Counted from the stretch's first letter, positions 18,729-64,000 are shown. The stretch is DNA of 64,000 bases from a virus (IMGVR_UViG_2547132519_000001:32001-96000); one strand, 5' to 3'. The notes: a model not told the origin generated them from the letters alone. Program-made: numbers and translations.

Positions 18729-18773
18729 TGATAAAACCTTCTTTCTAATATGTATTTCCGTATAGTACGGTAA

Positions 18774-18846
18774 CTGGCCAAGTAGGAATTGAACCCACGA
18801 CACTTTGCTTAACAGGCAAATGCTCTACCAACTGAGCTATTGGTCA
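18774..18846 (-). tRNA. tRNA-Asn(GTT)
   Basis: Cloverleaf: D arm GCTCAGTTGGTAGAGC, anticodon arm TTTGC-CTGTTAA-GCAAA, T arm GTGGGTTCAATTCCTAC; one acceptor mismatch; no encoded CCA. Confidence 0.9.
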
Positions 18847-18939
18847 ATAAAATACCAATGACACCACCACCAGAACGGTATTGTTGCCATTGGTTTGAAA
18901 GGAAAAGAATGAACTGAATAATATGAAGTAAATGAAAAG

Positions 18940-45192: not shown

Positions 45193-46794
45193 TCAAATAG
45201 TACCTTTATTCAAGCCACAGGATTTTTGCATTGCTTCTGACCAAGGCATCAGTTCTTCCAGGATACTATCGGGCTCATTTTTGTAGTCCAGCATCTTAGT
45301 CATAACTGTTTCCAGATAAAGACGGATGTTTAATCCATTTGCTTTGGCTGTTTCTGCAAGCGTGTAAACAATTGCACTTGCTTTGGCACCTTTTACAGTG
45401 TCATGAAAGAGGAAGTTTTTTCTTCCCATAACATATGATTTCACGGCTCTTTCAGCTGCGTTATTACTAATGGAGCATCTTCCATCAAGGAGGTAATTCT
45501 CCATATACGATTTTTGGTTTTGGGCATAGTTAATTGCCTTGGCAAGCTTTGATCCGCCAAGGGCATTTATCCCATTCACCCACTTCCAGAATGCATCCAG
45601 TACAGGTCGCTCCAGTTCAAGACGCTTTTTCTGTCGCTCTTCTGGTTCTAAGTCTTTCAGTTCTTTCTCTATCTGAAAGAGTTGGTTGCAGTAGGAATAG
45701 CCTGTGTAGGCTTCAGATTTTTCGGAGCATGATCCCTTCTTCTTGGGAATCGCTTCGAACATATATCTTCGAAGATGTGCCCAGCACCCGCATCGGGTAA
45801 TGTCACTCAAACGGTTGTATCCGCTGAAGCCGTCCGTATGGACAAACCCGTGATAATCAGCAAGGAACTTTGCTGCATGATAGCCGCCCCTTGATGGTTG
45901 ATACTCGTAAAGCACAATCCGGTGCTCTTCAAATGCACCGCTGGTGTACAACCATATGTAAGACTTTGATTCTGGAGTCTTGCCATCTTCATTCAAAACC
46001 TGGCATGTCGTCTCGTCTACATGAATGACGGACTGCCTAAGAAGATACTCATGATATCTCTCATAAACGGGTTCCAGATATTCTTCTGCGCATGTATTGA
46101 ACCAGCTGGCAATGGTTCCACGATTCAGCTTGACTCCCAGCTGTGCCCAATCCTGCTCCTGACGATAAAACGGAAGATAGTTCGTACACTTCTGATACAT
46201 GATGTAAGAGACCGCTGTAGCAGAAGCCATACTGTGATTGATGAGTGGCTTTGGCACAGGTGCCTTCTCAATGGTTGAATCACCATCTTCACGGCACTGT
46301 GGACATGCATAGCTATGCTGTACGTATTGGACACGTTCCACTTTTGCTGGAGTGATATGAATCTCTTCACGAACAACTTTGGAGCCGATATCTTCCATTT
46401 TAGTATTACAGTAAGGGCAGTTACGAGAATCACCTTCCAGTAAAAGCTCAATGGTCCTTATCGGTACATTTTTTGTAAGTTCATCATGCGTAGCACGGGA
46501 TTTTTTCTTCTCATGCGCTGTCACATTGATCATTTCCGGTTCGTGAACGTGTTCATCAATTCCCAACTGATCGAACAAGCTGAGTTGTCCGTCAATGTAA
46601 GGTAAGTTCGATGATTTCTCACTGGAAATACCAAAGATTTTTCGTTTCAGTTCATTAATTGTTTCCGTGAGGTTTGCAATGGTCTGGTTTAATTGTTCCA
46701 TCTGATGATCTTTTGCTTCCAGCTGTTTGAGCAGATTACTGACCAGCAGATTCATGTTAAGATCTTCGGTTTCAACAGACTTTTTCATGACCAT
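45193..46794 (-). CDS. tnpC: IS66 transposase TnpC
   Basis: Leucine zipper, CPYC/CPQC finger, HVDET, CWAHLRR, NNAAER. Confidence 0.95.
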   Translation of the reverse strand: MVMKKSVETEDLNMNLLVSNLLKQLEAKDHQMEQLNQTIANLTETINELKRKIFGISSEKSSNLPYIDGQLSLFDQLGIDEHVHEPEMINVTAHEKKKSRATHDELTKNVPIRTIELLLEGDSRNCPYCNTKMEDIGSKVVREEIHITPAKVERVQYVQHSYACPQCREDGDSTIEKAPVPKPLINHSMASATAVSYIMYQKCTNYLPFYRQEQDWAQLGVKLNRGTIASWFNTCAEEYLEPVYERYHEYLLRQSVIHVDETTCQVLNEDGKTPESKSYIWLYTSGAFEEHRIVLYEYQPSRGGYHAAKFLADYHGFVHTDGFSGYNRLSDITRCGCWAHLRRYMFEAIPKKKGSCSEKSEAYTGYSYCNQLFQIEKELKDLEPEERQKKRLELERPVLDAFWKWVNGINALGGSKLAKAINYAQNQKSYMENYLLDGRCSISNNAAERAVKSYVMGRKNFLFHDTVKGAKASAIVYTLAETAKANGLNIRLYLETVMTKMLDYKNEPDSILEELMPWSEAMQKSCGLNKGTI

Positions 46795-46882
46795 GTACCT
46801 CCTTGAATGATATACTTATTATACCACAAAGGAGACCGCAAAGCCAGTAAATAAGCGGTTCTGCGTGTACTTTATCAGATGC

Positions 46883-47236
46883 TTAAAAGGGCTTTTTGGC
46901 AACGGGTTTAATTGCCTTTGGCTGCTCAATAGAAAGACCTTCCATAAGCCAACGGAATTCCTGTCTGGTCAAATTTCTAACATCTTCTGAATTACGTGGC
47001 CACTGGAAACGGCCGGAATCTAACCGTTTATAAAGTAACACAAAACCATCTTTGTCAAAATGCAGTGCCTTCAGTCTGTCGCATCTTTTTCCGCAGAAAA
47101 GAAAAAGGGAATTACTGAAAGGATCTAACTCATAGGTATCCCGGACAATTGCCATAAGACCGTCTATGCTACGCCTCATATCGGTGTAGCCGGCCACAAG
47201 AAATATCTTTGCCACGCCGGAGAGATCACCTAGCAC
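46883..47236 (-). CDS. tnpB: IS66 accessory protein TnpB
   Basis: TDMRRSIDGL and KRLDSGRFQWP. Confidence 0.95.
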   Translation of the reverse strand: MLGDLSGVAKIFLVAGYTDMRRSIDGLMAIVRDTYELDPFSNSLFLFCGKRCDRLKALHFDKDGFVLLYKRLDSGRFQWPRNSEDVRNLTRQEFRWLMEGLSIEQPKAIKPVAKKPF

Positions 47237-47595
47237 AGTTGTCGCAACGCATTTAATGTTGCTGTAATAATGGCGGCATCTGCATTGTTACTGATAGCCA
47301 AAACAAAGCCATTGTATTCCAGATGGATTGCAATCCGATCCGTTTGTTTTTTAGGAAGAACTGCTTTTGTTTCTTGCAGTTCGTTGTAGTGAATTGGTAC
47401 AACTTCTGTTTTCTCTAGAACTTTTGGAACAGAGTCAGGAATCATAGAGGCTTTCTTCCTCAGCCGCTTTATATTGTAATAAAAAGAGCTGGTAGGTATA
47501 CCATTCTGACTGCACCAGGCGTAATCAGATAAGCCGCTTACGCGGCACTGCTGGATGCAATCCATCCAGTATTCATCTTTTTGAGCTTTTGTCAT
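47230..47595 (-). CDS. tnpA: IS66 accessory protein TnpA
   Basis: SGLSDYAWCSQNGI...FYY HTH. Confidence 0.9.
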   Translation of the reverse strand: MTKAQKDEYWMDCIQQCRVSGLSDYAWCSQNGIPTSSFYYNIKRLRKKASMIPDSVPKVLEKTEVVPIHYNELQETKAVLPKKQTDRIAIHLEYNGFVLAISNNADAAIITATLNALRQLC

Positions 47596-50448: not shown

Positions 50449-50496
50449 GTGTATCATAGAAATTGGAAATTTAAGGAAAGGAGAATGCGGATTACT

Positions 50497-50853
50497 ATGA
50501 CACAAGATTTAAAACGATACGATGTTGTACTTGTGGATTTTGGAAAAGAAACAATTGGTTCAGAGCAGGGGGGAGTTAGACCAGCGGTTATTATTCAAAA
50601 TGACATGGGCAATCTACATAGCGGTACCACCATTGTCTTTCCATTTACTACTCAACTCAAACGCCTCAATCAACCGACGCATACTCTTATTGCTAAAGGA
50701 AAGCATAAAGGGTTGGTTGAGGATTCTATGGTATTAGGTGAGGCTATTAGACAGATAGATCAGAAAAGAATACAAGAATACCTTGGCACAATAACCGACA
50801 TTAATGAAAGGAACGAAATTAAGCGTGTGTATGCCGCAAATTTCGGAGAATAG
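50497..50853 (+). CDS. mazF: PemK/MazF-family endoribonuclease
   Basis: GSEQGGVRPAVIIQND signature. Confidence 0.9.
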   Translation: MTQDLKRYDVVLVDFGKETIGSEQGGVRPAVIIQNDMGNLHSGTTIVFPFTTQLKRLNQPTHTLIAKGKHKGLVEDSMVLGEAIRQIDQKRIQEYLGTITDINERNEIKRVYAANFGE

Positions 50854-51217: not shown

Positions 51218-51487
51218 CAAAACAGTTTAGATGGCAGTTATTTCCTGACATAAAAATTGCAGCCTATTAAGGATCATAGGTGTTGGCGCACCTCCTCTAA
51301 ACAGGCTGCAATTTACATAATTAAACACAATACATAAATTCATTTTTGGCGAAATGAATTTAAGAGATATAGCAGAAAGCTATACTTGATTTTATTTTAC
51401 ATAATTTATTAGTAATAGTCAAGTATTTTCATATAATCAGCGTTTCTGCTAAATGTATCCAATTAGAAAAAGAGAATTATATATTAT

Positions 51488-51559
51488 ACCTCATTAGCCA
51501 AGTGGTAAGGCACAGGATTTTGACTCCTGGACTCACTGGTTCGATGCCAGTATGAGGTG
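51488..51559 (+). tRNA. tRNA-Gln(TTG)
   Basis: Acceptor ACCTCAT/ATGAGGT, D arm GCCAAGTGGTAAGGC, anticodon arm CAGGA-TTTTGAC-TCCTG, T arm ACTGG-TTCGATG-CCAGT. Confidence 0.85.
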
Positions 51560-51632
51560 GTATTTTGGTCGGCAAAAAATGCAAGACCTTAGTTAAAGTC
51601 GCTCATCAACAGAAATATAGGGAGGATTTTAA

Positions 51633-55656: not shown

Positions 55657-57710
55657 ATGGAATTTATTAAATTTAAAGAGGATTACAAAAGAGATTTGCA
55701 GAGATAAGCAAGGATTCAATACATTTATTTGAGGTAAACGTGGATAAAGATGAATTATGGAACACGTATCTTGATAGTTTTCCGGTTGGAACAAACAAAA
55801 TTTTCAGAGAAAGAAGAGAATATGATTGCAGTTGCTGCCGTCAGTTTATCAAGAATATTGGTAATGCAGTCGTCATCAAAAATAATGAGGTTCAAACGAT
55901 TTGGGAATTAAATCTCGGAGATAAAACATATCAGCCAGTATGTGATGCTTTATCGAACCTTGTTAAATCGCATATGGTAAATGACGTCTATGTAAGCAAA
56001 TTTAAAAAGATTGGTACTGACTTCAACTATGAAGATATGAATGGTAAGACACATAAATGGGATCATTTCTTCTTGGAACTCCCGGACAAGTTCTATGACG
56101 GAAGTTCTAGGTCTGAAGGTGACATTAAAGGCGGATTTAGAGATACCAGAAACGTTTTTAAGCGTTCATTAGATGAAATCTCCATGGACTCTCTAGATAC
56201 AGTTTTAGAACTTATTGACTCTAATACGCTTTACAAGGGAGAAGAATGGAAAACTGCTTTGGTTGAATTCCGGAAATATAAAAAGGAATATGACAATCTG
56301 AGAACAGAAACAGAGAGAGAGTTATTTGCTTGGGAGAAGTCGGTAAAAGCGGGTATGGCAATAGGAAGAATTCGCAACCATAGTATTGGTACGCTTCTTT
56401 TAAATGTTAGTGAAGGAATGAATTTAGATTTGGCAGTTAAGAAATATGAGCAGATTGTAGCACCGTCGAATTATAAAAGACCAAAGGCTATTTTTACGAA
56501 GAAAATGCTTGAAGATGCGCAGAGGACTATTACAGAGCTTGGATATATGGAGTCTTTACAGAGAAGATTTGCAAACCTAGATGATATTACAGTAAATAAC
56601 ATTCTCTTTTCTAATAAAGATTCTGCAAAACGAATTGGCGGAGTTGATGATATTTTTGGAGATATGGCAAAAGATGTAGCTGTGAGTCCAAAGCGATTCT
56701 CAAGGGTTGAAGAAATTTCCGTGAAAGACTTTATTGATAGAGTTCTCCCAACCGCGAAAGAGATTGAAACTTTTGTAGAAAATAAACACGATAAAAACTT
56801 TGTGTCTTTAATCGCTCCAATTAACCCTGAAGGCAAGACAATGTTTAAGTGGAATAACGGAATGAGCTGGGCATATACAGGCAATATCACAGACAGCGAC
56901 ATGAAACAGAACGTGAAAGCGGCTGGAGGCAACGTAGATGGAGTTCTTAGATTTTCTATCCAATGGAATGAAGATGGAAGGGATAATTGTGATTTAGATG
57001 CTCACTGTTACGAACCGAATGGTAATGAAATTTATTATGGAAATGATAGAAAGCCGGGTATTTCTAGGCTAGGTGGTCAATTAGATGTAGATATCATAGA
57101 TCCAAATGGAAAAGTTGCAGTAGAGAACGTTACTTGGGGAGATAAAAATAGAATGCAACCAGGTACATATAGATTCTTTGTAAATCAATTTTCTGGTAGT
57201 GTAAGAAATGGGTTCCGTGCTGAGATTGAGTTTAATGGAGAAATTTACACATTTAATTATGACAGATCAATGAGAAGTGGCGAGAATGTGTCTGTTGCAG
57301 ACATTGTACTTAGTTCAAATGGAGAATTTACTATTAAAGAAAAATTAATTGGAAGTTCAACAATTTCAAGCAAAGTTATTTGGGGAATTAACACAAATCA
57401 GTTTGTTCCTGTTTCTGTTATCTGTTATAGTCCAAACTATTTTGATGAACAGGAGGGAATTGGTCATCGTCATCTATTCTTAATGTTGAAAGATTGTAAA
57501 AATGGCGAAGAACCCAATGGCTACTATAATGAGTTTCTAAAGAACGAACTTGCTGAGCACAAGAGAGTCTTTGAGGCTCTAGGTGCAAAGTGCCACGTAG
57601 AAGATATGGAGGATCAGCTTTCGGGTATCGGATTTAGCATGACAAAACGTGCAGAATTAGTTGTAAAAGTTAAAGGCGCAACTGAGAGAATCATGAAGAT
57701 TAAATTTTAA
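55657..57710 (+). CDS. Large phage protein (CSCC motif; C-terminal DLDAH domain), apparent frameshift near 55680
   Basis: SD and ATG at 55657 (MEFIKFKE) joins the 55740 ORF only through a -1 shift. Confidence 0.6.
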
Positions 57711-59350: not shown

Positions 59351-59689
59351 ATGAGTGCAAAGAAGGATTGTTCATTAAGTGATGTAAAATTATTAAGGGA
59401 ATTGATTTTAGAAAACCCAGAACTTCCGTTAATTATTTTTTGTGGGGAAGATTCGTGGAGTGGAGAACATGCGTATGAACAAGTCAATGCTAGTAAAGGG
59501 GAAATTGAGAGTCTTATATTATATGGTGATACATGGTTGACAGAAGAAGACTATGCAGAAAAATTAACAGATGATTTAAGTGACGAAGAAGAATATAAAA
59601 ATTTATCAGATGAAGAATATAGAGAAATGATTGACAGAAAAGTATCGGCATCAGAATTTATAAAGGCCATTGTTATATGGATTGGGTAA
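59351..59689 (+). CDS. Hypothetical acidic protein
   Basis: ORF track, AAGGAG SD. Confidence 0.65.
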   Translation: MSAKKDCSLSDVKLLRELILENPELPLIIFCGEDSWSGEHAYEQVNASKGEIESLILYGDTWLTEEDYAEKLTDDLSDEEEYKNLSDEEYREMIDRKVSASEFIKAIVIWIG

Positions 59690-60264
59690 TTAAATTAGTA
59701 TTTTATTAGTAATAAAAATGAGAAAGGTGACAGTATGGACGAAAAATTTTATCAATCAATTATATCTGGAATTCAAGAAATGGAAGCATTAAAAGATGAC
59801 TATGAAAAGAAACAGGCACCTGGTGTGGTTTTGGAAGTATCAATAATATGATAAACCCTATGAAACGAGCAGTTTCCAGAGGAATGTATTCTGGAAAAGT
59901 CGAAGAACTTAGAGATCTGACGGCAATCATGGTTGAAGCACAGAAGCATAATAACTCGACAACCACAACCGCTATGGGGGAGCAGATTATTTACGAGTTG
60001 CTCGTTCAGTCAAACTGAGATTTGGTTTACCATTAAAAGGTTGTTTTTAATGATGAAGTACTTCGCAACATCTTGCGATAAACACAATAAACGGAATGTG
60101 TAAAGGAGAGAATGTGAAAGTTTTAAAAGTATTTGAGAAAACTCAACTAGAAGTGGGATAAGCATTAAATTTAATTACCAGTAACAATAATTAAAGATCA
60201 GGAAACAACAAATAAATTAGTAAATGAATCCTGTCAATGCTGATTTTAAATGAAAAGGAGAAAA

Positions 60265-60771
60265 ATGAAGAAGACGCTTATTGTAGTAGACATGCAAAAT
60301 GATTTTATTGATGGCTCTTTAGGAACTATTGAAGCACAGTCTATCGTGAAAAAAGTAAAAGATAAGATTACGGAATATCAAAATCGTGGAGATGAAATAA
60401 TTTTTACAAGAGACACTCACCTTTCTAATTATTTACATACTAATGAAGGAAAGCATCTTCCAATTGAACATTGTATTTTTGGAGAAAAGGGTTGGTTTAT
60501 TGCAGATGGATTAGAAGTTCCAAACTGTAAATATGTTGATAAATCTACGTTCGGATGGTGTTTCTGGAATAACATGAAATTCGATCAGGTAGAACTAATT
60601 GGTCTATGTACTGATATTTGCGTAGTCTCTAACGCTTTAATTCTTAAAGCGTCATTCCCTAATATTGAAATTACAGTAGATGCAAGTTGCTGTGCAGGAG
60701 CCACACCGGAAACCCATAAAGCCGCATTAGAAACCATGAAAATGTGTCAGATTAATGTGATTGGAGAATAA
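60265..60771 (+). CDS. pncA: Nicotinamidase / isochorismatase-family cysteine hydrolase
   Basis: VVDMQNDF, DTH, HC, DK, GLCTDICV catalytic motifs; NAD operon context. Confidence 0.85.
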   Translation: MKKTLIVVDMQNDFIDGSLGTIEAQSIVKKVKDKITEYQNRGDEIIFTRDTHLSNYLHTNEGKHLPIEHCIFGEKGWFIADGLEVPNCKYVDKSTFGWCFWNNMKFDQVELIGLCTDICVVSNALILKASFPNIEITVDASCCAGATPETHKAALETMKMCQINVIGE

Positions 60772-60772
60772 C

Positions 60773-61579
60773 ATGATAAAAATAGAAAGCTGCATTGTAG
60801 ATGTTAAGAAGTTTCCAGATGGGACATTACTGTTCAAGGAGGATATTCCAATTGATTTTCGGGATTATAGGGAGGCAACTCTTGAGTGGCTTTTTGAAAA
60901 CAACGAAGAATTGATTGTCCTTATTTATCTTGTAAAGCATCTAAAATCACATGGCCTGAATAGTTTATACCTTAAGATGCCATATATTCCTAATGCTAGG
61001 CAGGATAGGGTAAAAAATACAGAAGATGTATTTACACTAAAATACTTTGTAGAGATTATTAATTATCTGGATTTTGATTCTGTAACTGTTCTTGATCCTC
61101 ATTCAAACGTAAGCGAAGCTTTAATTAATAATATTATTGTCAACTCACCAGAAAAATTAATCTCTAAAGTAATTTCAAAAATAGGTGAAGATAATTTAAC
61201 AATGTTCTATCCTGACGAGGGAGCTATGAAAAGATATTCAACATTGTTTGATATACCTTATGCTTTTGGTATTAAGAAGCGAGATTGGGAAACAGGTAAA
61301 ATCAATGGATTAGACGTATCTGGAATGTTGGAGTTTATAAAAGGAAGAAAAGTTTTAATTGTAGATGATATTTCAAGTCGTGGAGGTACTTTCTATTACA
61401 GTGCAAAGAAACTAAAAGAATTAGGCGCAAAAGAAGTCTACTTGTATGTATCTCATTGCGAAAATACTATTCTTGAAGGAGATGTATTAACTAGTGGCTT
61501 GATTGAGAAAGTATATACAACAAATAGCATTTTTACAGAAAATCATGAAAAGATAGAGGTAATGAATTATGAACAATAA
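60773..61579 (+). CDS. prs: PRPP-synthetase-like protein (Adps-like)
   Basis: FPDG, PYIPNARQDR, DPHS, YPDEGA, VDDISSRGGTF. Confidence 0.85.
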   Translation: MIKIESCIVDVKKFPDGTLLFKEDIPIDFRDYREATLEWLFENNEELIVLIYLVKHLKSHGLNSLYLKMPYIPNARQDRVKNTEDVFTLKYFVEIINYLDFDSVTVLDPHSNVSEALINNIIVNSPEKLISKVISKIGEDNLTMFYPDEGAMKRYSTLFDIPYAFGIKKRDWETGKINGLDVSGMLEFIKGRKVLIVDDISSRGGTFYYSAKKLKELGAKEVYLYVSHCENTILEGDVLTSGLIEKVYTTNSIFTENHEKIEVMNYEQ

Positions 61580-63041
61580 AATCAACCCTATGTTATTGAT
61601 AGATTTCTATAAGGCAGTTCATAGTGATATGATTAACCCCAAGATGACCAAATCAGTGTCATATTATACTCCAAGAATGAGCAGAGTAGATAGGTGGGAT
61701 AAAGTAGTAATGTTTGGACTGCAAATGTTTTGCAAAACATGGCTTGTTGATTATTTTAATGATAATTTCTTCTATCTAAACAGGGAAGAAGTTATATCTG
61801 AATATGAAAGAGTATTGGACGCTTCTCTCGGTAAAGGAATTTACGATTCAATTAAAATTAGAGAGATACATAAGTTAGGGTATTTACCTATCGAAATTGT
61901 TGCTTTACCAGAAGGAACATTGGTGCCAATTCATGTTCCAATGTTCGGAATAACTAATACTCATCCGGGCTTTGCATGGCTTCCACAAGCCTTAGAGAGC
62001 TTGATTTCAGCTGAGATGTGGTATCCGCAAATTACTGCTACTGTTGGCAAGACGTACCGAGATATTGTCAATAAGTATTATAGTCTGACTTGTGATGATA
62101 ATATTCCAAGGGCAAAAGCATTGGGAGCATTTGATTTTAGAGGTGATATGTGTGTAGATGCTGCATTAAAAGCTGGTGCAGGTTGGTGCATGTCATTCTT
62201 AAATACGGCTACAGTTCCTGTCATTCCATATTTAGAGGATATGTTTAATTGCGATTGCACGAGTGAACCTGTCGCATTTGGGTCAGTTAGTACAGAACAT
62301 TTTGTGATGTGTAGTAACTATGCGATTGACGGTGATGAAATTACGTTCCTAAAGCGGTTACTAACAGAGTTGTATCCACATACTAGTTTTTCTTGTGTTC
62401 TTGATAGTTATGATTACTGGAATGTGATAGATAATATACTTCCACAATTATATGATGAAATTATGGATCATGATGGTTGTATGATGATGCGCGGAGATTC
62501 TGGTGATTGTGTTGATGTAGTTACAAAAACGGTATTTAAACTTTGGAATCTGTTTGGAGGGACTTTAAACAAAAAAGGATATAAAGTGCTTGATCCTCAT
62601 GTCAAAGCAATTTATGGGGATAGCATTACGATTCAGAGGTGCGAAGAAATATATAAGATTCTTATGGAGAATGGATTTGCTTGTAGCAATGTGGTTTTAG
62701 GAGTAGGATCTTTCTCTATGCACTGCATTGAAGAAAATAATATATTAAAACCTTTTACAAGAGACACGTTTAGTTCATGTATTAAAGCTTGTTATGCAGA
62801 GGTAGACGGTAAGTGCTATCCAGTGTTTAAAGACCCGAAAGATGGCGGATTTAAAAAAAGTCAAAAAGGAATATGCCATGTACATTTAAATGAAGATGGA
62901 GAATTAGTGTATAAGGATGAATATACAACTGAAAGTATCCCAGAAGGTAATTTATTGCAGACAGTCTTTAAAGATGGCGAACTTATTAAAGAGTATTCAC
63001 TTAAAGAAATTCGAGATATTTTGAATGGAGGAAAATTTTAA
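61569..63041 (+). CDS. Nicotinamide/nicotinate phosphoribosyltransferase-like protein (Nampt/Namat-like)
   Basis: DFYKAVH, FDFRG, STEH, DSYD, RGDSG, YGDSIT, KKSQKG. Confidence 0.9.
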   Translation: MNNKINPMLLIDFYKAVHSDMINPKMTKSVSYYTPRMSRVDRWDKVVMFGLQMFCKTWLVDYFNDNFFYLNREEVISEYERVLDASLGKGIYDSIKIREIHKLGYLPIEIVALPEGTLVPIHVPMFGITNTHPGFAWLPQALESLISAEMWYPQITATVGKTYRDIVNKYYSLTCDDNIPRAKALGAFDFRGDMCVDAALKAGAGWCMSFLNTATVPVIPYLEDMFNCDCTSEPVAFGSVSTEHFVMCSNYAIDGDEITFLKRLLTELYPHTSFSCVLDSYDYWNVIDNILPQLYDEIMDHDGCMMMRGDSGDCVDVVTKTVFKLWNLFGGTLNKKGYKVLDPHVKAIYGDSITIQRCEEIYKILMENGFACSNVVLGVGSFSMHCIEENNILKPFTRDTFSSCIKACYAEVDGKCYPVFKDPKDGGFKKSQKGICHVHLNEDGELVYKDEYTTESIPEGNLLQTVFKDGELIKEYSLKEIRDILNGGKF

Positions 63042-63778
63042 TGTTTGATGCAAAGAAAATAAAAAATGAGATAGTAGAGTGGATTAAAAAGTTCTTTGAA
63101 AAGAATGGCAATGGCTGTAACGCTGTTGTTGGAATTTCAGGCGGTAAAGATTCAAGTGTCGTTGCTGCATTGTGCGTAGAAGCCCTTGGAAAAGAACGGG
63201 TTATTGGAGTATTAATGCCAAACGGGGAGCAGAATGATATTGATATGGCAAAACTTCTAGTGAATACTTTAGATATTAAATACCACATTGTAAATATCCA
63301 CGATGCAGTTAAGGCCATAAAATATGAAGTGAAATCTAGTCTTAATGATCATTGGAGCATACAGTCATCAACGAACTTACCAGCTAGAATTAGAATGGCT
63401 ACATTATACGCAGTATCTCAAACCGTTAATGGACGTGTAGCTAATACTTGCAATCTTTCTGAAGATTGGGTCGGTTACGCAACCCGTTATGGAGATGCGG
63501 CTGGAGACTTTAGCCCATTGTCTGGATTAACAGTTTCTGAAGTAAAAGCTATTGGATATGAACTTGGTCTTCCAACTAGCCTTATTGAAAAAACTCCTAG
63601 TGATGGTCTTTGTGGTAAATCAGATGAAGATAATCTTGGTTTTACTTACGATGCTTTAGACAGATATATTCGTACAGGGGAAATTGACGATCAAGATGTA
63701 AAGGTCAGAATTGACAATATGCATTTAAAAAATAAGTTTAAATTGGAGCTTATGCCAAGTTATAAAATTATCAGTTAA
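63041..63778 (+). CDS. nadE: NH3-dependent NAD+ synthetase
   Basis: GISGGKDS, ARIRM, NLSE, GYATRYGD, PSDGL...DEDNLG. Confidence 0.95.
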   Translation: MFDAKKIKNEIVEWIKKFFEKNGNGCNAVVGISGGKDSSVVAALCVEALGKERVIGVLMPNGEQNDIDMAKLLVNTLDIKYHIVNIHDAVKAIKYEVKSSLNDHWSIQSSTNLPARIRMATLYAVSQTVNGRVANTCNLSEDWVGYATRYGDAAGDFSPLSGLTVSEVKAIGYELGLPTSLIEKTPSDGLCGKSDEDNLGFTYDALDRYIRTGEIDDQDVKVRIDNMHLKNKFKLELMPSYKIIS

Positions 63779-63824
63779 AACACGTCTTTCAATGGAGAAT
63801 ATATAAATGGAGGTGAAATGAATT

Positions 63825-64000
63825 ATGATTCAAGACGTATTAAAACTTATTGAGAAAAAAGAGAAATTGCAGATTCTGTTGGAGACTGTTGGTATTGAAT
63901 TAAAAGAGGCTGCCAATAATTTAGACCTTGATGCTTTAGAAAATTGCGACTATGAAACAATGAAGGGCTTGTATAATCAAGTTCAATATTTAATTGATGA
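63825..64000 (+). CDS. Hypothetical protein (partial)
   Basis: MIQDVLKLIEKK... open to window end; GGAGGTG SD. Confidence 0.55.
   Translation, partial: MIQDVLKLIEKKEKLQILLETVGIELKEAANNLDLDALENCDYETMKGLYNQVQYLID

Follow-up and report, generated by a model that had tools for sequence, protein, structure and literature searches.

A prophage operon related to NARP1 with a remodelled transferase pocket and a predicted nicotinate route to NAD+

Described NAD+-rebuilding systems and the four-gene operon

Depletion of NAD+ is among the commonest anti-phage strategies of bacteria, and the main known phage answer to it is the reconstitution pathway NARP1. The latter is made up of the two enzymes Adps and Namat and has been described for the phages SPbetaL1, Bas63, FADO and ICP1 (Osterman et al., 10.1101/2024.02.11.579819; structures in PMC12774641 and PMC13586617), where, according to the text of the preprint, the SPbetaL1 Adps makes ADP-ribose pyrophosphate (ADPR-PP) and 97% of the Adps clade is encoded beside a Namat homologue. 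Here we describe an operon encoding a nicotinamidase, an Adps-like kinase, a Namat-like transferase and an NAD+ synthetase (NadE), which lies at positions 60265 to 63778 of a 64,000-nucleotide stretch of viral DNA (IMGVR_UViG_2547132519_000001:32001-96000, hereafter the window), corresponding to bases 32001-96000 of a 134,298-bp IMG/VR provirus record estimated by CheckV to be 82% complete. The window contains portal, terminase, endolysin, holin and integrase genes, the record downstream of the operon contains genes for DnaB, primase, Pol III alpha, methylases and NrdD/G, and the carrier is a large prophage of a gut bacterium. The comparisons reported below suggest that the operon is probably a deamidated form of NARP1, which would rebuild NAD+ from ADP-ribose (ADPR) and nicotinamide by way of nicotinate.

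The original prediction had placed tightly coupled nicotinamidase, Prs-like, Nampt-like and NadE genes at this locus, and both the layout of the open reading frames (ORFs) and the family matches agree with it. The features to which the text refers are as follows.

60265..60771, + strand: nicotinamidase (PncA-type hydrolase of the isochorismatase family; PF00857, alignment with the Pyrococcus enzyme)
60773..61579, + strand: Adps-like pyrophosphokinase of the phosphoribosyl pyrophosphate synthetase (PRPS) fold, predicted ADP-ribose pyrophosphate synthetase (42% identical to SPbetaL1 Adps)
61569..63041, + strand: Namat-like transferase with a remodelled base pocket, predicted nicotinate ADP-ribose transferase making nicotinic acid adenine dinucleotide (NaAD) (relative of Namat 9w5x/9w5w)
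62202..62210, + strand: codons N212-T213-A214 of the transferase (A214 stands for Namat D215, N212 for an invariant Gly)
62289..62291, + strand: codon S241 of the transferase (stands for pocket Ala242 of Namat)
62706..62765, + strand: selectivity-clamp helix region GSFSMHCIEENNILKPFTRD (9 residues longer, by an insertion, than the Namat motif GSFTYQYNTRD)
63041..63778, + strand: NH3-dependent NAD+ synthetase NadE, single domain, 245 aa (PF02540, TIGR00552)

The four head-to-tail ORFs were listed at 60250-60771, 60761-61579, 61569-63041 and 63041-63778. The nicotinamidase ORF is open from ATG 60250, with the likely start at ATG 60265 behind AGGAG (60256-60260), and the Adps-like ORF is open from TTG 60761, with the likely start at ATG 60773 behind GGAG (60763-60766); counted from the TTG the latter has 272 aa, equal to the length of SPbetaL1 Adps, whose N-terminus aligns from residue 5 of this longer form. 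The nicotinamidase stop at 60771 is thus separated by 1 nt from the Adps-like ATG, an 11-nt overlap is shared by the Adps-like and Namat-like genes, which adjoin each other as in the Adps clade, and an overlap of 1 nt links the Namat-like gene to NadE. Scans for promoters and terminators over 59600-64000 showed no excess over shuffled sequences (17 in comparison to a mean of 20.9, and 2 in comparison to 1.4), and none of the public RNA runs was listed as containing the operon.

In the pathway that we propose, the splitting of NAD+ into ADPR and nicotinamide would be the starting point. The nicotinamidase would convert nicotinamide to nicotinate, the Adps-like kinase would form ADPR-PP from ADPR together with ATP, the changed-pocket transferase would join ADPR-PP and nicotinate directly to NaAD, and NadE would make NAD+ from NaAD, NH3 and ATP; since NaAD would be formed directly, no adenylyltransferase acting on nicotinic acid mononucleotide (NaMN) would be needed. 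In the phage the pathway would serve as counter-defence against NAD+-depleting systems, a role suggested by analogy with canonical NARP1, while the bacterial copies would recycle ADPR and nicotinamide. The ATP-driven last step may pull the pathway forward, and the nicotinate route may not be starved where a host nicotinamidase quickly removes nicotinamide, which, if true, would explain reconstitution working in such hosts. At the core would stand a new activity, that of a nicotinate ADP-ribose transferase (ADPR-PP + nicotinate -> NaAD + pyrophosphate), within a four-enzyme pathway having neither a mononucleotide nor an adenylyltransferase step and acting both in phage counter-defence and in an unrecognised bacterial branch of ADPR recycling; we incline, if cautiously, to this account as a whole. 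If true, it would add a new reaction to NAD biochemistry, and the labels 'nicotinate phosphoribosyltransferase' and 'ribose-phosphate pyrophosphokinase' would hide a distinct pathway. The pathway genes are abundant and occur in considerably more than a hundred contigs of large gut phages from humans and animals and in genomes of Lachnospiraceae, Ruminococcus and Oscillospiraceae.

Similar to NARP1, the operon has Adps-like and Namat-like genes side by side, whose products are both 42% identical to their SPbetaL1 counterparts, with a transferase that keeps the catalytic His, the ribose-site Arg and Asp, the clamp residues R40 and F392, the TRD motif and the fold. It differs from NARP1 in the transferase pocket, where Ala replaces the amide-binding Asp, Ser the pocket Ala and Asn a Gly, in a 9-residue hairpin insertion in the clamp helix, in the flanking nicotinamidase and NadE genes added to what is published as a two-gene system, and in the predicted transferase product, which would be NaAD instead of NAD+. 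With Preiss-Handler salvage (PncA, PncB, NadD, NadE) it shares a nicotinamidase as the first enzyme, an NH3-dependent NadE as the last one and deamidated intermediates, but it lacks a PncB-family enzyme and NadD and has an Adps-type kinase and a Namat-type transferase in their place. Phage-borne rebuilding of NAD+ from pyridine precursors is also a property of NARP2 (Nampt and Nmnat, Vibrio phage KVP40) and NARP3 (PnuC and NadR, PMC13464706), both of which, in contrast, proceed via nicotinamide mononucleotide (NMN), use no nicotinate, nicotinamidase or NadE, and need an adenylyltransferase, none of which was found in this phage. Our search of the published literature, which covered main texts (the supplementary Table S1 of Osterman et al. 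and the supplementary tree of PMC12774641 could list members), found neither a nicotinate-using Namat nor a NARP1 that is combined with nicotinamidase and NadE. The available text of the Osterman, aRES and RyR preprints and of the Namat structure paper makes no mention of nicotinamidase, PncA, NadE or nicotinic acid, nor does 'deamid' appear in the preprints or 'nicotinate' in the structure paper. The operon may thus be described as a variant of NARP1 with a predicted new enzyme activity that is apparently undescribed.

Transferase pocket and the partner enzymes

The transferase matched phrog_448 with 498.5 bits in addition to PF04095 and PF18127, and its best solved relative was Namat (9w5x/9w5w, E 7e-110), in comparison to about 1e-42 for human NAMPT. 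Its AlphaFold (AF2) model, with a predicted local distance difference test score (pLDDT) of 92.0 and a predicted template modelling (TM) score (pTM) of 0.91, superimposed with TM scores of 0.92 on Namat, 0.89 on HdNadV and 0.86 on human NAMPT, and sequence and fold together give solid grounds for regarding the protein as an ortholog of NARP1 Namat. The PncB family models, which match a separate host gene, gave no match to the operon's transferase, for which NF006629 (PRK09198) was the sole NCBIfam match, with 403.5 bits. NF006629 is named 'nicotinate phosphoribosyltransferase' and has a cut-off of 405; the validated SPbetaL1 Namat, a nicotinamide ADPR-transferase, scores 593.7 on it, and the name of the model is therefore uninformative on substrate.

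We then mapped the pocket residues onto SPbetaL1 Namat and compared them with the residues described in PMC12774641. The Nampt-like catalytic core was found to be kept, with D12, Y14, F188, R191, H244, R308 and D310 corresponding to Namat Asp13, Tyr15, Phe189, Arg192, His245, Arg306 and Asp308. Three residues around the base were found to be changed: Namat D215, the amide-binding Asp, is A214 here, A242 is S241, and G213 is N212. The equivalent of Namat D215 in human Nampt is D219, and a D219S mutant of Nampt is reported to accept nicotinic acid. Asp219 is reported as defining, or fundamental for, the substrate specificity of NAMPT (PMC7096376), and D215 of Namat as hydrogen-bonding nicotinamide, its replacement by Ala lowering NAD+ output 8.1-fold (PMC12774641). 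Judged by this Asp, the protein would not be a nicotinamide transferase and may work like Namat with another base. The loss of the acidic side chain would remove a repulsion of the carboxylate, to which Ser241 could hydrogen-bond, and in those changed-pocket members that carry Lys at position 212 (21 of the 47 full-length ones; Arg stands there in the gut phage phAss-1) this residue could also bind the carboxylate. The original prediction that the transferase uses nicotinate is thus supported by the lost amide-binding Asp, as well as by the strict linkage to nicotinamidase and nadE genes described below, and nicotinate would probably be the base.

The selectivity clamp was found to be partly kept. 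Residues R39 and F382 correspond to R40 and F392 of Namat, the double mutant of which was the most damaging clamp mutant (16.6-fold, PMC12774641), and T397, R398 and D399 correspond to T398, R399 and D400. The clamp motif GSXxXxXxTRD, which is GSFTYQYNTRD in Namat, reads GSFSMHCIEENNILKPFTRD here, so that the aromatic residue at position 3 and the TRD are present in a sequence that departs from the motif. In the model, residues 381-385 are helical and are followed by hairpin strands at 386-389 and 392-395 (pLDDT of the block 87-89).

The second enzyme of the operon matched the phrog_619 'ribose-phosphate pyrophosphokinase' with 242 bits. The original prediction that this Prs-like gene is a relative of Adps held up, with a score of 162 bits to the validated SPbetaL1 Adps (112 of 265 residues identical) in comparison to 69.7 bits, the highest score reached by any of 29 solved PRPS sequences; the copy of the PDB sequences that was searched contains no Adps chain, and SPbetaL1 Adps was compared by sequence. 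On the Prs model TIGR01251 (cut-off 113) both the operon's protein (112.1) and the validated Adps (106) stay below the cut-off. Adps has been described as having a pyrophosphate (PP) loop remodelled for donor binding, with Cys215-Ser220 and an aromatic lid of Phe221 and Phe223 (PMC13586617). The loop of the operon's protein is DDISSRGGTF, within a stretch reading DDISSRGGTFYY, in comparison to DDLSSFGGTF in SPbetaL1 Adps, with Ser at the equivalent of Asp216 and, as in SPbetaL1, Ser in place of the Cys. Across the loci described below, the form DDIC..G.TF prevails with both types of transferase pocket, with the Cys in 69 of 76 changed-pocket and 61 of 73 canonical sequences; the Phe after GT, present in the operon's protein, was found in all 73 canonical and in 46 of the 76 changed-class sequences. 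The identity to the validated SPbetaL1 enzyme makes orthology to NARP1 Adps solid, and ADPR-PP would be the donor that this protein makes.

Of the two flanking enzymes, the nicotinamidase scored 86.8 bits on the isochorismatase family PF00857, and its best solved relative was the Pyrococcus pyrazinamidase/nicotinamidase (1ilw/1im5, E 1e-11), with which D14, K98 and C124, which we take to be catalytic, and D55, H57 and H74, presumably the metal site, are aligned. Among 71 distinct homologues from related loci, D14, D55, H57, H74 and C124 were invariant and K98 was present in 65. NadE scored 189.3 bits on PF02540 and 189.8 bits on TIGR00552 (nadE, cut-off 63.65; match over residues 5-239), and all eight of its solved relatives at E<=1e-20 were NH3-dependent NAD synthetases, the best being 2e18 (133.2 bits). 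The SGGxDS loop, which is SGGKDS in the operon's protein, was present in all 72 NadE homologues, and by this loop, a model score over the cut-off and a single domain that leaves no room for a glutaminase domain, the fourth gene is predicted to encode NadE.

Pocket classes and their linked genes

To see how widely the changed pocket occurs, 1.84 billion representative sequences were searched and the best 150 were aligned with the query. In these 151 sequences, column 214 is D in 95, A in 35, S in 18 and another residue in 3; column 241 is A in 95, S in 53, G in 2 and E in 1; and position 212 is most often G (97), K (21) or N (20). The combination G-D-A occurred 93 times, and A or S combined with S at column 241 occurred 52 times if the query is included; of the 53 sequences with S at column 241, 51 have A or S at position 214. 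The two classes are most cleanly distinguished at positions 184/186 (by F188), 212/214, 238-241 and 306 (by R308), all of which flank known nicotinamide contacts, and a simple rule tells the two forms apart, the canonical one having G-T-D and A-TEH and the changed one x-T-[A/S] and S-TEH. A FastTree built from 142 near-full-length sequences and rooted at its midpoint placed every changed-pocket sequence on one side, and the basal branches of that side keep the canonical clamp; the pocket was therefore changed first, and essentially once, with the clamp insertion following later. Many Namat homologues (P0161, P0195, P0198 and others, of 550-1114 aa) carry large intein-like insertions, located for example right after GS[FY] of the clamp helix or before TEH of the catalytic His motif, and such insertions account for the many matches in this family that come in two stretches.

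For the analysis of gene neighbourhoods, 258 loci, each with flanks of up to 6 kb, were collected from IMG/VR in four alignment-based scans; four GenBank phage regions were added to them, and all were scored with hidden Markov models built from first-round matches. A scorable transferase ORF was found in 261 of the 262 loci, 3 of them fragments that allow no pocket call, and the counts for the Asp class include at least five contigs that were each returned by two different scans. A megablast search of the GenBank phages with the operon and a single-protein scan of viral contigs with an operon protein gave no match, the relatives being found by the alignment-based scans. The results by pocket class were as follows.

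[A/S]..S pocket, 135 loci: nicotinamidase 126, Adps-like 131, nadE 124, both accessory genes 117
D..A pocket, 123 loci: nicotinamidase 0, Adps-like 118, nadE 0, both accessory genes 0

Contig ends account for most of the misses of accessory genes in the changed-pocket class. In 50 whole records of Asp-class phages, PF00857 was not found at all and PF02540 gave only two weak partial matches (24.1 and 18.8 bits, profile positions 3-101). The gene order varies among the changed-pocket lineages, with the nicotinamidase upstream or downstream and the Adps gene 2.7 kb away in some (L071-L084). In the unrelated, TAG-recoded gut phage phAss-1 (L268, OQ749652.1), the genes for nicotinamidase, Prs-like protein, Nampt-like protein, a small ORF and NadE stand in a row, and the transferase combines an R-T-A-T pocket with an intact canonical clamp. 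The scans aimed at basal changed-pocket lineages with an intact clamp (P0140, P0148, P0150 and P0155 groups) returned mostly canonical loci and loci with the pocket K-S-S, and among the loci that group is represented by phAss-1 only. Its NadE homologue is annotated 'hypothetical protein', the ORF of 139 aa between transferase and NadE is of unknown function, and in the available portion of the phAss-1 paper the nicotinamidase appears only in a table and the pathway is not mentioned. Among 50,697 GenBank phage records, 2043 had a transferase relative, just one of these at more than 60% identity, and 51 had any NadE relative, a rarity which may explain why this class escaped surveys of isolated phages.

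These counts also bear on the explanation that a canonical, nicotinamide-using NARP1 pair merely lies beside an independent nicotinamidase and NadE that boost host salvage. It would agree with the orthology of both Adps and Namat, and Ser241 could in principle take over the hydrogen bond of the Asp to the amide and keep nicotinamide specificity, which is a point against nicotinate use. We consider it very unlikely, in that the residue whose loss is costly in the validated enzyme is gone, the transferase would lose its own substrate to the nicotinamidase, and the accessory genes, near-constant with the changed pocket, are absent from the Asp-type loci and, as regards PF00857, from the whole records as well.

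Competing routes, bacterial copies and neighbouring genes

The original prediction had also stated that no NadD, NadM or NadR is encoded in the operon or the window, which proved correct and extends to the whole record as available, where neither TIGR00482 (NadD) nor PF01467 (the fold common to NadD, NMNAT and the N-terminal part of NadR) had any match. In the 74 loci with the pocket N-A-S, the window's own lineage, no adenylyltransferase was found within 6 kb. Among the records of changed-pocket phages PF01467 was present in 7 of 49 (2 of 17 when only records with a completeness of 90% or more are counted), in comparison to 5 of the 50 canonical records (2 of 18 among those near completion), and there is therefore no enrichment of adenylyltransferases in changed-pocket phages.

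Several observations weigh against the proposed ADPR and nicotinate pathway. The association between the pocket and the accessory genes is one ancient, well-kept change and not repeated convergence. In the tree of the Adps proteins, 69 of 75 sequences fell in a clade of 71 with a support of 0.0, which is weak for a separate clade. The 9 residues that interrupt the clamp motif leave its second stacking aromatic (Y396, position 7) without an alignable counterpart, and a return to the use of phosphoribosyl pyrophosphate (PRPP) in this lineage is possible. In the K-S-S sublineage (L170-L234) an archaeal-type NMNAT-like gene, which at 61.6 bits is well below the cut-off, adjoins nadE in 18 of 51 loci (for example L270:1387-1962, - strand, beside nadE at L270:2197-2958, - strand), and in a 245-kb phage the transferase lies at a distance of about 8 kb from a NadD-like gene (104.5 bits, cut-off 112.45). 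Such neighbours fit a mononucleotide route, at least in those lineages, and the K-S-S phages may run a mononucleotide branch besides or instead of the ADPR route. To our knowledge every host has NadD, and a phage that has no adenylyltransferase hence proves nothing.

The main alternative is ordinary Preiss-Handler salvage without any ADPR, in which the nicotinamidase makes nicotinate, the Prs-like enzyme makes PRPP, a nicotinate-specific Nampt-like enzyme makes NaMN, and host NadD and then NadE complete NAD+. The pocket change bears on the base only and not on the ribosyl donor, Namat can use PRPP in vitro as stated in the Osterman preprint and PMC12774641, the operon's kinase is merely 0.9 bits below the Prs cut-off, and the chromosomal copies of the operon occur in bacteria with NadD-type salvage, all of which would suit this route in the same way as the interrupted clamp helix and the NMNAT-like and NadD-like genes. 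On the other hand, the kinase is much nearer to the validated Adps, itself below that cut-off, than to any PRPS of solved structure; the clamp pair that matters most is kept here, while the basal member phAss-1 keeps the full Namat clamp and yet has nicotinamidase and nadE; and adenylyltransferases are no commoner with the changed pocket. The bacterial carriers provide a further argument, as all five carrier genomes examined have a second PF04095 gene in addition to one or more Prs over the cut-off (157-175 bits), with NadA in four of them, and the two second PF04095 genes that were fetched are canonical PncB (687 and 697 bits on NF006695, cut-off 469). In carriers that already own PncB and Prs, an operon making PRPP and NaMN would therefore be redundant, which favours a different job such as ADPR recycling. 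Based on this balance we regard the Preiss-Handler reading as unlikely, though it is the one to be taken most seriously beside the proposed pathway.

A second mononucleotide route would resemble that of Francisella, with nicotinate and PRPP giving NaMN, a NadE-like enzyme converting NaMN to NMN, and an NMN adenylyltransferase of host or phage yielding NAD+. In its favor are 3fiu, presumably the Francisella enzyme reported to prefer NaMN, among the solved NadE relatives (106.7 bits) and the NMNAT-like gene directly beside nadE in the K-S-S sublineage. It is nevertheless a long shot: the best relative 2e18 and the other six of the eight are named NH(3)-dependent NAD(+) synthetase by their depositors, NMNAT is found neither in the window's phage nor in 15 of its 17 near-complete relatives, and the objections to Preiss-Handler salvage that come from Adps orthology hold equally.

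Bacterial genomes were scanned in a species-representative collection with one genome per species, in which 253 stretches encode a relative of the transferase, and the gene order was examined in the best 80 of these. With identities of 67-92%, most of the 80 belong to gut or rumen Ruminococcus, Lachnospiraceae, Oscillospiraceae and Eubacteriales; the order nicotinamidase-Adps-Namat-NadE was seen in 63, and contig ends cut most of the others. Ruminococcus albus and relatives (L304, L307, L308, L312, L316, L317) have the operon without nadE despite several kb of downstream flank, and presumably rely on a NadE encoded elsewhere. A chromosomal Adps-Namat pair has been described from Paenibacillus foliorum, with 71.9% identity to SPbetaL1 Namat and an assay with nicotinamide (PMC12774641), and is taken to be of the nicotinamide type from that identity and assay only; it resembles the operon of Konateibacter and Ruminococcus in being a chromosomal pair, and differs in that the Clostridia operon has the changed pocket, a nicotinamidase and mostly NadE.

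The transferase of the prophage is 84% identical to a chromosomal copy in Konateibacter massiliensis, where, as in R. albus 8, the neighbours of the operon are transporters, regulators, a two-component system and a glycosidase and not phage genes. This chromosomal context is a further point against the proposed role, since the genes alone do not imply counter-defence and the module is not phage-only, and the phage copy may be host-derived. The chemistry could then be as proposed and the prophage operon a metabolic passenger derived from the host, serving the housekeeping recycling of ADPR and nicotinamide in gut Clostridia, as the number of species-representative stretches with relatives would also allow. 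We hold this to be rather improbable, because many large phage genomes retain the set, some of them with terminal repeats and an estimated completeness of 100%, it occurs in the unrelated recoded phage phAss-1 as well, and canonical NARP1 has a counter-defence role demonstrated in the Osterman preprint.

Directly 3' of nadE there is a 241-aa ORF without a family and then an ABC transporter (window 63825-64000 onward, record 95825-100992, L002:825-5992), which comprises, besides a BPD_transp_1 permease and an ABC_tran ATPase, two unknown ORFs and a binding protein of the NMT1/THI5-like kind to which an OmpA domain is fused. It could conceivably import a pyridine or a pyrimidine, but the transporter was dropped as a part of the system, a permease and ATPase lying beside the operon in only two scored loci, both of the changed-pocket class. 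Upstream of the operon by 2.5 kb, at 55740-57710 (+ strand), is a 656-aa protein without a Pfam family or an assigned function that matches phrog_1735 from end to end (857 bits). The region 45193-47595 (- strand) carries an IS-type transposase set (phrog_688, 358.6 bits, and phrog_623) and has a G+C content of 0.41 in comparison to about 0.33, and looks like an insertion sequence inside the prophage. Other genes observed were a MazF-like gene at 50449-50853 (+ strand), a reverse transcriptase (PF00078) at L002:16783-17811 (- strand), and two tRNA genes, Asn-GTT and Gln-TTG, at window positions 18773-18847 and 51487-51560.

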